Positions 2,259 through 12,617 of a stretch of DNA of 12,886 nucleotides are shown here, in pieces; position 1 is the stretch's first letter, and every line of letters begins with the position of its first letter. The position numbers and the translations under genes are program-made. This DNA is from Planctomycetota bacterium (lineage in GTDB: Bacteria > Planctomycetota > Planctomycetia > Pirellulales > Lacipirellulaceae), in NCBI GenBank assembly GCA_039190745.1, contig JBCCXZ010000086.1:1-12886 (forward strand). Reading direction: 5' to 3'. The notes below the pieces were generated by a model. It was given only the letters and a program-made list of their open reading frames with translations, searched no databases and was not told the origin of the DNA.

Positions 2259-3500
2259 ATGCCGCCATCTTTCACAGGATTCGCCGTCTTTGATCTCGAA
2301 ACGACCGGTCTCAGTATCCGCAGACATGATCGGATCATCGAGATTGGTGTCGTTCGTTTCGACGAGGACTTTGACCTGGTCGAAGAGTGGGAAACTCTGA
2401 TCAACCCCGAAAGAGACATCGGTGCTTCAGAAATACACGGGCTAACGGCGAGCGACCTTCGCGATGCCCCAACGTTTGCTGAGCTCTTGGTCGACATCTG
2501 GCACCGTTTCGAAGGAGCTATTCCGGTTGCTCATAATCTTGCGTTTGACCGCAGATTCTTGCTTGCAGAATTTCAACGTGCGGGAGTAGAGATTGAACAA
2601 TTTGATGGACTATGCACTTGCAAACTCGTCGAAGAGCTTGATTTGTCAACACCGAGTGCGCGACTTGAGGATGTGTGCCGCTCCCTTGGTCTTCCGATAG
2701 GAGATGCTCACAGTGCTGGACATGATGCAAAGATGGCGGCCGAGATACTTAAGCGCATTGAGAATCCAGCTTCGTTAGTTGAGGACTTAGTCCCCCCATC
2801 TTGTCCGTCCCTTTGGAAGCGTGGTGCTACACCGTTAGGAGTTACTCGTCAGAAGGCGCGAGAGACTCCAATGCGATCGGCGCTGCATACGCTAGCTCGA
2901 AGAGTAGAGCGAGAATCCGTTTCTGATGGGGCTAGCCGTGGGCAGCTGGATGAGTATCTATTGATCCTTGATCGTGTACTTGACGATCGGATTATTGAAG
3001 AGGCAGAGATTGAGGAATTGTCGTTCTTCGCAGACGAATGCGGCATTCAGCCTTCAGAGCTAGATACGCTACACGAACGCTACGTCTCAGCGCTAGCGGC
3101 TGCAGCTCTCGGTGACGGAGTTGTTACGGATGCCGAGCGTAGAGATCTGTATCGTGTATCCGATCTGCTCGGAGTTTCCCGGAGCAAAGCGGAGTCGTTG
3201 TTGGAAGTCGATCAGCTGCCTAGCGAATTTGAAACAGAAGACCTATCCGGCCTGACGGTGTGCTTCACGGGAACATCGCGGTGCCGAATCGACGGAGAAC
3301 TACTCAAACGGGACCAGCTGGAAGCGCTGGCTGAGTCATTCGGGCTAGTTCCCAAAAGGGGCGTGAGCAAGAAGCTCGATCTGGCTGTGCTCGCAGACCC
3401 AGACTCAATGTCTGGAAAGGCAAAGAAGGCGCGTGAGTACGGTGTACGAATAATGGCTGAGCGTGTGTTCTGGCGTAAGTTGGGTATTGATGTCGGCTGA
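2259..3500 (+). CDS. DEDDh 3'-5' exonuclease (DnaQ/epsilon-like) fused to a TerB-like helical region and a C-terminal BRCT domain; low-GC gene
   Basis: ExoI DLETTG, ExoII HNLAFD, ExoIII HSAGHDA. Two TerB-like acidic repeats (VLDDRIIEEAEIEEL, ALGDGVVTDAERRDL). BRCT motifs VCFTG, GVSKKLDLAV, SGKAKKAREYGV and 'VFW'. Hand-counted lines 2521-2580 (45% GC) and 2881-2940 (57%) versus 72% at 1381-1440. Confidence 0.88.
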   Translation: MPPSFTGFAVFDLETTGLSIRRHDRIIEIGVVRFDEDFDLVEEWETLINPERDIGASEIHGLTASDLRDAPTFAELLVDIWHRFEGAIPVAHNLAFDRRFLLAEFQRAGVEIEQFDGLCTCKLVEELDLSTPSARLEDVCRSLGLPIGDAHSAGHDAKMAAEILKRIENPASLVEDLVPPSCPSLWKRGATPLGVTRQKARETPMRSALHTLARRVERESVSDGASRGQLDEYLLILDRVLDDRIIEEAEIEELSFFADECGIQPSELDTLHERYVSALAAAALGDGVVTDAERRDLYRVSDLLGVSRSKAESLLEVDQLPSEFETEDLSGLTVCFTGTSRCRIDGELLKRDQLEALAESFGLVPKRGVSKKLDLAVLADPDSMSGKAKKAREYGVRIMAERVFWRKLGIDVG

Positions 3501-9348: not shown

Positions 9349-10380
9349 CTATTGCCCGCCCGTCGTGTCTCCCCTACCGGAATCGCGCGGCCCGCCCGTC
9401 GAGGTCTTGCCGGTTGGGTCCGGGATTGGAGCCACTCCGTAGTCGACTAACTCGGTCACGCTGTGACGCACGCGGCGGCCTTCGCTGTCGGTGTCGGTGG
9501 AAGATGCCTCCACGGCCCCGCCCGGCACCGATTCGCATAGAAAGACCGACCGGACGGTACGGCCCTTGGCAGAACGCCGGCTCCAACGCGTCCGGCAGCC
9601 GGACACGATCCGCCCGCGTAGCAGGTACGGCACGGGCATCGTCGTCACCTCCATCGACAGCGTCGCTTCGGGCCCGCCGCCCTCCTCCTCCGTCAACACA
9701 GTGCGGCTCATGCGCACCGCGTGCGGGAAGCCATCCCTGCGGTAGTGGGTCTGTTGCACAACGGTCTCATTTTCGTCGGCGTAACGGAACTCCCAGAGCC
9801 GGCACTCAAAGGGCTCCCCATGAACTTCGACCGTTGCGGCTCCGAGGTCGGCGGACTCGATCAACCGCCCCGGCTCGTCGGTCGCGAGCTTGAGCGCGCG
9901 GGTCTTCCAGTCTCCAGACACTTGCTTGCCGTCCAGGTCCACCGCCGCCTTCACGTCGAGCACGTAGGTGTCGTCCACCACCGCCTTCAGCACTTCGTGC
10001 TTTGTGGTGACGCTCTTTCCGAGCAGCGAGCCATCGGGGTTGAACGTCTCGGTGATGGTCCGCAGCACGCGGTAAGACCCAACCGGGAACCGCCCCCAGA
10101 GGTGCGTCGCGGCGGGGAACACGGGCGAGGGCGCCGGCTCGTCTTTCTCGTCCGGCACCGGCAGCTCAGGCGTAGGCAGCTCCGACGCGGGCACAGCATC
10201 GGCCTCGACGCGCGCCGGCTGCTCCGCGCTATCAGCGGCTTCAGCGGGGGCGTCGAAGGTCTCTTGGCCCTGCGCGCCAGGCACGCTCGATCCGCCCACA
10301 AAGAGCAAGCCGGCCAGCAAGGCGGCAGTCAACGACGAGAGCGGTCGATTCGGATTCAACAGTCGAGCTTTCTGACCCAT
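9349..10380 (-). CDS. Hypothetical exported protein, beta-strand-rich, function unknown
   Basis: From ATG 10380 there is a signal-peptide-like N-terminus (LTAALLAGLLFVGG...AQG/Q), an acidic Pro-rich linker, then a globular Thr/Val-rich domain (HLWGRFPVGSYRVLRTITETF...VPGGAV...TELVDYG). The track's extension to 10776 overlaps the SelA-like gene and is unlikely. Confidence 0.78.
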   Translation of the reverse strand: MGQKARLLNPNRPLSSLTAALLAGLLFVGGSSVPGAQGQETFDAPAEAADSAEQPARVEADAVPASELPTPELPVPDEKDEPAPSPVFPAATHLWGRFPVGSYRVLRTITETFNPDGSLLGKSVTTKHEVLKAVVDDTYVLDVKAAVDLDGKQVSGDWKTRALKLATDEPGRLIESADLGAATVEVHGEPFECRLWEFRYADENETVVQQTHYRRDGFPHAVRMSRTVLTEEEGGGPEATLSMEVTTMPVPYLLRGRIVSGCRTRWSRRSAKGRTVRSVFLCESVPGGAVEASSTDTDSEGRRVRHSVTELVDYGVAPIPDPTGKTSTGGPRDSGRGDTTGGQ

Positions 10381-10465
10381 GACGAGCAGGCGAGCCACCA
10401 GTTTAATCACCCGGCGGCCCCGAGTCAGCCGCCGCGGCGCGGGAAGTGCGCCTGCCCGCTGCCGC

Positions 10466-11557
10466 TTACCCGAAGCCGGATTCGGTCGCCGCGACAAGCC
10501 GCTGGTCCCACCGGGGGAAAACCGCACGCAGGTCCAGGTGCAGTGCGTCTGAGCGTTGGCGAGCCGCCACACGCTCGTCCCGTTCCAACCGCGCCGCGGC
10601 CGACTCGACCGAGGCAGTTCCCGACTCCACGCGCACGCACCACGTCGAAGCCTCCAGGTGCAGCCCGTCCGCTTTGCACCAAGGCGAGATATCTTCCATC
10701 GGCTCGGCCGCGGCCACGCCAGGGATCGCGGCGAGCAGCGGCGCCAGCCTTTCGGCACGCTGCCGCAGGTTGTCACGCGGGGTGGTGAGCAAGCTCCAAA
10801 CGGGCAGCTTGTGGATCAGCGTCTCACGGTCTTGGTACAGCCCGAGCGTCGCTTCCAATGCCGCCAAAGCCACCCGGTTGGGCGCCGCCGCGGCGTATGC
10901 TTCGTGTTCCCGTACGCCTTGCAGCGTCGAACTGCGGCCGAACACAACCGCACAAGCCGGTCCGCCCAGCAGCCCGTCGCCAGAAACCGCCACGGCATCC
11001 GCCCTGTCTTTCAGTCGCGCTGCTACTGTCGGCACCGACGCCAGTCCGTGCGTCTCCGGATCCACCAAACCCGCGATCCATGCACGCTCGAAGTTGTCCC
11101 AACCCGCCGCCAGGCAGCACGCCTCGAGCGCTGCCCGCGAAGAGAACACCAGGGCGTCCTCGCAACCCGCCGCCGCGGCCGCCGCCTGCTCCACCGAACG
11201 CACGTAAGCACCGTCAACCATCGCGTAGTCGCTCGCCAAGACCATCACGCGATGGACCGCCGCTTCGCTGAGCGGCACGCCGTCCCACACGCCCCCGAGT
11301 ACCACGCCCGTGGCGTTCACCAACGGCTCCGCGTGTCCCCGCTCACGGAGCACACGGCGAACGAACGCTTCGGCCAAGTCGCCAACGTTGGTCGGCACGC
11401 CCTCCACGGCTCGCGCGGCTCCTGCGCGCAGCTCGTTCAAGAACCCCGTCGCCTGCTGGGCAATGGTCGATTGATTCACCCGCTCCAGCGCACGCTGCAC
11501 GGTAGGGTGTTCCAGCAGCTCGCTGAGCTGCGGCAAGTCACGGAGGGAGGGCGGCAT
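10466..11557 (-). CDS. SelA-like protein (selenocysteine synthase homolog) lacking the catalytic PLP lysine; probable pseudoenzyme
   Basis: SelA landmarks in order: LRDLPQLSELL, LVNATGVVL, AGCEDALVF, GLVDPETHGL..VPTV, SGDGLLGGP, LAALEATLGLY, LPVWSLLT, LHLDLRAV. The ORF is uninterrupted, 363 aa from ATG 11557. Confidence 0.85.
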   Translation of the reverse strand: MPPSLRDLPQLSELLEHPTVQRALERVNQSTIAQQATGFLNELRAGAARAVEGVPTNVGDLAEAFVRRVLRERGHAEPLVNATGVVLGGVWDGVPLSEAAVHRVMVLASDYAMVDGAYVRSVEQAAAAAAGCEDALVFSSRAALEACCLAAGWDNFERAWIAGLVDPETHGLASVPTVAARLKDRADAVAVSGDGLLGGPACAVVFGRSSTLQGVREHEAYAAAAPNRVALAALEATLGLYQDRETLIHKLPVWSLLTTPRDNLRQRAERLAPLLAAIPGVAAAEPMEDISPWCKADGLHLEASTWCVRVESGTASVESAAARLERDERVAARQRSDALHLDLRAVFPRWDQRLVAATESGFG

Positions 11558-11592
11558 TTCAGAGTTGCTTCCAGGGGGCTGCGATCCGACCA

Positions 11593-11622
11593 ATTATGGT
11601 GGAGGCGAGCGTTGGAAGTCTA
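11593..11622 (-). promoter_or_regulatory. Candidate promoter TAGACT-N18-CATAAT for the SelA-like gene
   Basis: Minus-strand TAGACT (11622-11617) and CATAAT (11598-11593), 35 nt before ATG 11557. Confidence 0.35.
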
Positions 11623-11767: not shown

Positions 11768-11992
11768 CTATTTCTTCTCGACGCCAGAGCTCTTCAACCC
11801 AACTTGCTCCGGCGACGGAAACGGGTCGTTCTTCACGAGCTTCGTGATCTCCCGCTCGTCGTGACGGCTGGTGGAGCCCGGTCCTCCGGAACCGCCCGTC
11901 CACGACTGGCACCCGCACGCCGCGAGCCCGCAGGCCGTGAGGATGAACCCGGCGCAAGCCGCCGATCGCAAACGCAACAAGCTACGCGTCAT
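11768..11992 (-). CDS. Small putative lipoprotein (74 aa)
   Basis: GGAG lies 8 nt before ATG 11992. Basic N-terminus, hydrophobic stretch, lipobox-like LAAC/ACGC, Gly-Ser linker and a C-terminal NDPFPSPEQVGL motif. Confidence 0.7.
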   Translation of the reverse strand: MTRSLLRLRSAACAGFILTACGLAACGCQSWTGGSGGPGSTSRHDEREITKLVKNDPFPSPEQVGLKSSGVEKK

Positions 11993-12080: not shown

Positions 12081-12617
12081 CTACGGTTTGAGCCGGGGCT
12101 GAGACATCCACTCGCCTACGGTCTGCGGGCCCCTCGGCTCCTGCTTCGGAGTGAACAGCCGCTGCCAGAACGGCTCCTTCGGCCGCGACCGAGCCTGGGG
12201 CGACTTGGTCTTGGGGCCGGGGCTCACGATACCTTTGAATCCGTTCCACGCTTGTTTCGTCCCTTCGCCGATCTTCCGCGCCCCCGCTTCGATCGGCGCG
12301 AAGAACGACGCGCCGTCCTCGCCCGACCACGGGAAAGAGATCTTCGGCGGCTTGAATTCCGGGAACGTGATCTTCGGCGCCGGGATGCTTGGCCAGCTCA
12401 CCTTGATCAGCCCGCCGCGCTTCTCTTCTTTGGCGACCGCCTTCTCCACTGCATCGGAGGACGGCATCGTCTGCTCCGCCTCAGGCGCGGCGTCGCCGGA
12501 GCTGCTAAGGACTTGGCCCGTAGCGCTGGTGAGCCCCGCCATCGAGCAGACGATGGCCCCGGCCCAAAGCACGCCGGCGCTCACGGTTCTTGGACGATAG
12601 GTTGCGTGAAGTTTCAT
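12081..12617 (-). CDS. Hypothetical exported Pro/Lys-rich protein (178 aa)
   Basis: GGAGGG lies 8 nt before the ATG. Signal-peptide-like N-terminus, repeated PKI[TS]FP, and C-terminal PQTVGEWMSQPRL. Confidence 0.8.
   Translation of the reverse strand: MKLHATYRPRTVSAGVLWAGAIVCSMAGLTSATGQVLSSSGDAAPEAEQTMPSSDAVEKAVAKEEKRGGLIKVSWPSIPAPKITFPEFKPPKISFPWSGEDGASFFAPIEAGARKIGEGTKQAWNGFKGIVSPGPKTKSPQARSRPKEPFWQRLFTPKQEPRGPQTVGEWMSQPRLKP

Follow-up and report, generated by a model that had tools for sequence, protein, structure and literature searches.

A putative catalytically dead selenocysteine synthase at the native selA locus of Pirellulales, carried mostly by genomes in which no selenocysteine genes were found

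Why would a planctomycete keep a selA gene that has been stripped of its catalytic parts? The question is raised by a 12,886-nucleotide stretch of DNA (the window), in which one gene encodes a SelA-like protein, P0001, with glycine in place of the lysine that binds pyridoxal phosphate (PLP). The first-pass annotation, made from the sequence alone, had described an uninterrupted reading frame with glycine in SGDGLLGGP, GGVWDGV for HTNLGRA, SSRAAL for NNNAAA, an absent block of roughly 80 to 90 aa, and a promoter candidate of its own; all of this holds (Table 1), the absent block measuring 88 aa against three intact SelAs, as 21+67 around W153. An additional 8-aa deletion after residue 112 had escaped that annotation. 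The promoter candidate is the sole one within 3.9 kb (mean in shuffled sequences, 0.2), and both of its hexamers and the GGAAG are identical in G098, a genome of the same genus, where the surrounding DNA has diverged. The window contains no selB, selC or selD, as had been noted, but a full set sits elsewhere in the same genome (G000), on contig C29; no tRNA or Rfam match was found anywhere in the window. At 2259-3500 (+) the window also carries a gene, probably acquired horizontally, whose product is a DEDDh exonuclease; it matches TerB and BRCT weakly and lies where the GC content is low (51-55% versus ~68%).

Table 1. Positions of features at and beside the P0001 gene, in window coordinates
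Feature	Position	Strand	Remarks
P0001, putative catalytically dead SelA, short form, 363 aa	10466..11557	-	Uninterrupted ORF; PF03841/TIGR00474 scores; structure match
N-terminal helical bundle, residues 1-75	11333..11557	-	Identical in G098 at pS 0.43
GGVWDGV replacing HTNLGRA after NATGVVL; Arg86 equivalent (Aquifex numbering) gone	11276..11296	-	
W153/D154 junction of the 88-aa core deletion	11096..11101	-	Removes Aquifex R174, T191, T192, D199, H215, S217, N218, Y220
Gly195 (GGG) at the PLP-lysine position, within SGDGLLGGP	10973..10975	-	
N263-L-x-x-R267-A-x-R270 motif on the first C-terminal-domain helix; candidate site of the second function	10748..10771	-	
L341-D-L-R-x-V-F-P-R-W-D351, conserved C-terminal motif	10505..10537	-	
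Sigma-70-like promoter candidate, TAGACT-18-CATAAT	11593..11622	-	Conserved in G098
GGAAG ribosome-binding-site candidate before ATG	11568..11572	-	Conserved in G098
Downstream gene, signal-peptide-like start	9349..10410	-	A marker of the native selA locus; weak DUF3108/TapB-like lead only

P0001 retains the domain order of SelA (N-terminal bundle, a core that is 88 aa shorter, and C-terminal domain) and matches PF03841 with 83 bits; its match to the SelA N-terminal family PF12390 is weak, and its TIGR00474 score of 121.6 bits lies below the cut-off of 267.9. We mapped residue roles by alignment from the passages of PMC4607533 and PMC11047290 that treat Aquifex SelA, and in that numbering P0001 is without K285, R86, R119, R312, R315, H215, S217, N218 and the DxGSG aspartate, and keeps S282 and D284. 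The PLP-binding lysine (K285 in Aquifex, K295 in Escherichia coli) corresponds to Gly195, and the aligned columns of the arginines for selenophosphate and positioning (R86, R119, R312 and R315) read G, V (region deleted), A and A. The deletion takes out the dimer-dimer sites T191, T192, D199 and Y220 as well as region 218-224, on which the decamer depends; mutating the four sites turns the SelA decamer into dimers, according to a passage of PMC4607533. On established chemistry, a protein so altered would be excluded from Sec synthesis. The predicted structure (mean pLDDT 88.7; 59-74 over the N-terminal 80 residues) has Aquifex SelA 3w1h as its closest structural match (Z 29.3, rmsd 11.5, 352 aligned), and an ESM Atlas search returned SelA clusters alone. 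As a homodimer P0001 scores 0.86, the best of three controls scoring 0.00, with runs agreeing in at least 78% of contacts at pLDDT of at least 84; the mark for this score is reached by 20/30 solved pairs and 1/23 single chains, and because SelA dimers have already been solved, the pass may be memory and show likeness only. The listed dimer interface is without residues 1-74 and helix 261-276, a listing that is no proof of non-contact.

The matches to P0001 include the cultured hosts Lacipirellula parvula, Bythopirellula goksoeyrii and B. polymerisocia, and from such source names we take the family to be Lacipirellulaceae and the order to be Pirellulales. The Lys column is occupied in the 100 best matches by Gly (99) or Ala (1), with Lys in the next 20; 65 native-type family loci out of 112 were read, and these have 62 Gly, 1 Ala and 2 Lys, with all four Gly codons represented among them. 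That the orthologs also lack Lys agrees with the pseudoenzyme proposed in the first-pass annotation, and so does the strength of selection: dN/dS, computed with a Nei-Gojobori script, is 0.06-0.18 in 14/14 close pairs that we chose. Between P0001 and its counterpart in G098 it is 0.105, with values of 0.106 and 0.077 for the comparison genes prc and trpD, and residues 1-75 show zero amino-acid changes. N-terminal identity exceeds core identity in 16/16 degenerate pairs versus 2/9 intact pairs, and selection preserves the predicted dimer together with the N-terminal bundle, helix 256-276 and the motif at the C terminus. A relic in slow decay, retained for something other than its protein such as transcription of the downstream gene, would suit the conserved housekeeping block around the gene and the fast divergence between lineages, seen as long branches; dN/dS near 0.1, the unchanged N-terminal residues, and the persistence of the gene where it has moved to other loci and where the downstream gene has been lost nonetheless leave this account scarcely credible. 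On its sequence, P0001 is a pseudoenzyme that has lost its catalytic residues and kept both fold and selection, and we consider it very probable that a dead enzyme is here under Sec-independent selection.

Dead SelAs come in two forms, one short (~362 aa) and one long (~430-480 aa), and are conserved tightly within lineages and divergent between them. Across lineages the Lys column holds G, R, A, H, F, E, Q, D, L or Y, and among 187 Lys-less sequences R86 is retained in 9, R312 in 29, R315 in 42 and S217 in 13. The aminotransferase fold has been put to other uses, in that MocR/GabR proteins have effector domains of this fold. By analogy, the dead dimer could be a small-molecule sensor or carrier that holds a metabolite non-covalently in the old active-site cleft; the predicted retention of the dimer fold, the nearly invariant INATG and GGPxCG motifs, and an EVG motif retained by the long forms speak for such a role. 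It appears improbable, however, given that the cleft is where conservation is lowest and where lineages differ (10 residues at the Lys column), with conservation concentrated in the C-terminal helix and N-terminal domain. Sugar dehydratases with His for Lys use non-covalent PLP or PMP. Dead SelA might similarly still be an enzyme, using non-covalent PLP or PMP or a new site, and His does occupy the Lys position in one genus-level group, which includes a Blastopirellula marina sequence (listed in supplement 3 of PMC1794560), while 23 degenerate copies still have Lys; this is nevertheless very improbable, as the short form has neither the strands nor the residues (H215, S217 and the DxGSG Asp) by which the pyridine ring is held, and no replacement residue is common to the lineages. 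JGI and UniRef call relatives seryl-tRNA(Sec) selenium transferase, the mis-annotation that had been foreseen. Lys-less long forms can even score above the TIGR00474 cut-off (e.g., G049, 290 bits; G141, 274; G120, 361), and because they pass this curated selA threshold they would count as Sec synthases in trait surveys.

The distribution of the dead gene is set against that of the selenocysteine machinery. The family profile matches 112/120 family genomes (70/71 of those of high quality), whereas selA above 480 bits is found in 28/120, selB in 27/120 and tRNA-Sec above 60 bits in 28/120; these counts, and those below, include non-independent kin and many fragmentary assemblies, and only the 28 tRNA-Sec matches above 60 bits were counted because the model also matches ordinary long-arm tRNAs. 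The co-occurrence check that had been suggested for the family finds dead SelA mostly away from selA, selB and selC, with the dead gene carried by 82 of the 89 family genomes in which none of the three was found. A second, degenerate-type match accompanies the high-scoring selA in 25/28 family genomes, one of the 25 being a partial, unread match. Outside the family, within a 301-genome sample of the order, a SelA-like gene is present in 60/174 selB-less genomes, 57 of them below 465 bits, and no SelA-like match was found in the other 114, including 52/52 genomes of one family. Outside the order, 208/282 genomes of the phylum match; 204 score as intact, a judgement by score on unread sequences that a weak second copy could escape, and the other 4 are contig-end pieces. 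Because selA in these genomes outside the order either scores as intact or was not found, graded decay with retention was seen only in Pirellulales.

This distribution bears on the earlier suggestion that the dead protein regulates a true SelA, and on the related reading that it is a dead subunit of a working one. Although G000 has both proteins, as do the family genomes with a second match, most carriers have no selA, selB or selC that could be found, which largely refutes both; P0001 is, in addition, without the ring interface, and the working SelA on C29 comes with a complete N-terminal domain of its own. We regard this role as highly improbable. A reading in which the dead protein shares its head with a truncated working SelA does not fit either, given that complete domain, and the TIGR04282 gene lies on a different contig. 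HisZ, the LCB1 subunit of SPT, and PDX1.2 are pseudoenzymes derived from translation or PLP enzymes, their dead folds kept as binding or scaffold subunits, and each works on a sister enzyme within its own cell. In most carriers of dead SelA, unlike in those systems, the sister enzyme is absent.

The dead gene sits at the native selA locus of Pirellulales and is not a spare paralogue. Synteny was read from ~80 loci with crude gene calls, at which dead family copies have proC, two hypothetical genes and an EF-P-like gene to one side and a secreted-protein gene and prc to the other. In G243, G290 and G365, intact selB-selA follows proC and is followed by the same secreted-protein gene and guaB; intact selA without adjacent selB is at that position in G271, G122 and G278, and degenerate copies are at the same position in G364, G202, G281, G141 and others. 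The two hypothetical genes between proC and the EF-P-like gene (L034:9081-10111 and L051:9196-10055) have no Pfam match and are conserved in many genomes of the order. Upstream of the dead gene, a small lipoprotein-like ORF (window 11768-11992, -) and a proline/lysine-rich ORF with a signal-like start (window 12081-12617, -) both recur at this locus in relatives, also with no Pfam match. No partner was found at the locus, where the conserved neighbours are housekeeping or secreted genes. The downstream secreted-type gene occurs in 163/301 genomes of the order; a functional tie to it was rejected, since it is present in 27/52 family genomes and in many genomes without SelA and does not co-occur with the dead gene. 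In G087 an Rdx/SelW-family gene with an in-frame TGA at the CxxU position (L058:2059-2289, +) lies 4 kb upstream of dead selA. A tie to this Rdx selenoprotein was also rejected, the gene being found at that one locus only and not at the other loci read or in G000.

The working sel genes of G000 on contig C29 comprise a selD fusion, selB, selA and selC, and this cluster groups with other lineages, apart from the native clade (support 97). Its selD (L003:3115-5340, -) carries a fused pyridine nucleotide-disulfide oxidoreductase domain and stands head to head with selB-selA-selC.

Whether the dead copies arose once or several times was addressed with quick trees. The degenerate copies of Pirellulales are on long branches and diverge fast between lineages. 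A mixture-model tree groups four degenerate copies from family f18, and G159, with intact SelAs of f18 (96, 93), and at least three changes are then needed; FastTree, on the other hand, joins nearly all degenerate copies (support 82), and an AU test does not reject a single clade of them (p 0.414). Copies in early decay are found in the selB-less genomes G159, G143, G364, G130, G283, G246 and G316, and we infer from these and from synteny that repeated decay in place is favoured. The short form itself occurs more than once in the trees, with G107 nested among long forms (99) and P0153 in another long group (99).

If SelA has a function that outlives its chemistry, the part responsible may be marked by the residues that the native enzyme and its dead descendants share. 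The most discriminating, top-ranked column of the alignment is N263, which is present in 26/31 native intact SelAs, 1/50 other SelAs and 209/210 degenerate copies, although the last count may be inflated, the degenerate set having been gathered with a profile in which N263 is invariant. The native clade comprises 31 rows (SH-aLRT 91) in a quick tree of 66 high-scoring SelAs, from which five more family sequences, in which N263 is absent too, were left out for run time. None of the 19 working SelAs in this tree that come from genomes with a dead copy has N263, and the 19 are spread over at least five groups outside the native clade. Conversely, in the 25 genomes with the full motif in their native SelA, no native-type dead copy was seen, with few candidates scored per genome and fragmentary assemblies; among these comparisons, the G316 sequence is already in early decay, and a second copy, of a foreign clade, is present in G084. 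The pattern is of one N263-type SelA per genome, intact or dead, and the exceptions to N263 are 5/31 native intact SelAs and the dead copy of G317 (1/14 newly read dead copies). The part played by N263 and R270 could be to support the structure instead of forming a binding site. The second selA of G084 (L151, on G084:C106) scores 502 bits and has Gln at the PLP-lysine column, the native selA of that genome being intact. A distinct clade of intact-looking SelAs (L136, L155-L158, L165, L172 and L175) mostly has SADK or STDK for SGDK, and a DPRT C-terminal motif.

We tentatively explain these observations by a native Pirellulales SelA that has been stripped of its PLP and selenium chemistry and is selected as a non-catalytic, dimeric binding protein, acting through its N-terminal bundle and the helix that opens the C-terminal domain. 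The intact ancestor would already have had a second job, tied to N263, a step that we think probable; after loss of Sec the catalytic parts would have decayed, probably more than once, and working SelAs acquired later would not replace the second job. The dead dimer may then be a scaffold with a binding module at each end, likely an adaptor. Weighing against this explanation, the job must be dispensable in much of the order, as seen in the selB-less genomes outside the family with no SelA-like match.

The least certain step is the nature of the partner, which is perhaps a protein. The dead dimer might instead bind a structured RNA, using the N-terminal domain as a D-arm/T-loop reader together with a basic C-terminal pocket; in most carriers this RNA cannot be tRNA-Sec, so that another tRNA elbow or a tRNA-shaped RNA would have to serve. 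As described in passages of PMC11047290, SelA's N-terminal domain reads tRNA-Sec at its D-arm and T-loop, and E. coli SelA has a second basic pocket at E430-R449. In the dead family no region is better kept than the N-terminal domain; R344, the counterpart of E. coli R449 in the alignment, is kept in 181/187 sequences, and R267 and R270 are kept in 187/187 and 185/187. However, the tRNA pocket is formed by two dimers (from a passage of PMC4607533) and the dimer-dimer block is deleted here, the net charge of the dead SelA is negative (mean, ~ -10), and no Rfam RNA was found in the window or at the G098 locus. The N-terminal Arg that is invariant in intact Pirellulales SelAs (26/26) is Thr in P0001, is lost from its clade and is kept in 96/187. 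An RNA partner is thus possible but unlikely. Because of the charge, the loss of this Arg, the lack of a ring for a tRNA pocket, and the combination of conservation within lineages with divergence between them, a protein partner is slightly favoured over RNA.

These proteins differ from the SelA relatives and orphans known so far. Dead SelA shares with bacterial SelA (TIGR00474, PF03841 and PF12390; PDB 3W1H, 3W1K, 8UZW) the fold, domain order, N-terminal bundle and predicted intimate dimer, and P0001 descends from an intact gene at the same locus; it differs in lacking the PLP Lys, R86/R119/R312/R315 and the ring interface, and in being mostly without selB and selC. The SelA-like proteins DgaE/DGL and MJ0158 keep PLP. 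They (PDB 7LC0, 2AEV; TIGR01437) resemble P0001 in having a SelA-related fold with no Sec role (Z 18.2 and 13.0), but align only from residue 71 of P0001 onward and have no N-terminal bundle, and the DgaE/selA_rel profiles (TIGR01437, NF047797) give no match to P0001 at E 0.05. The orphan SelA of Helicobacter pylori and H. acinonychis, according to passages of PMC4607533, stays under purifying selection in genomes that have lost the Sec system, has eroded dimer-dimer residues, and is credited by the authors with a possible alternative function. In the H. pylori type the N-terminal domain is lost and the catalytic residues are kept, so that P0001 is its mirror image. Nine SelA homologues in non-Sec organisms were set aside in PMC1794560, where it was remarked that a new function for SelA is possible, and the B. 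marina sequence listed in its supplement belongs to the dead SelA family; in the passages of that paper covered here, neither the lost lysine nor the clade nor the short form comes up. We found no description of the dead Pirellulales family in the literature searched, which mostly excludes subscription journals and excludes two supplements of PMC4807772, one of which may treat planctomycete sel genes.

Orphan selA genes have been noted since 2006 without a function. On balance we lean toward the native Pirellulales SelA being a moonlighting protein, in which a Sec-independent role would reside in the N-terminal bundle and the N-L-x-x-R-A-x-R helix, a role strong enough for a minimal dead dimer to have arisen several times independently once Sec was lost, for the 88-aa core to have been lost more than once, and for the protein to be kept despite re-acquisition of a foreign sel cluster. 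Because a dead SelA is conserved in a large group of planctomycetes that is mostly without Sec machinery, the enzyme likely had a second, non-catalytic job. The family offers a graded natural series at one locus, from intact SelA, through copies that keep Lys with the selenium sites gone and copies that have lost Lys, to those with the core deleted; with this series, a single candidate residue in N263, and cultured hosts, the second job of SelA is directly testable.
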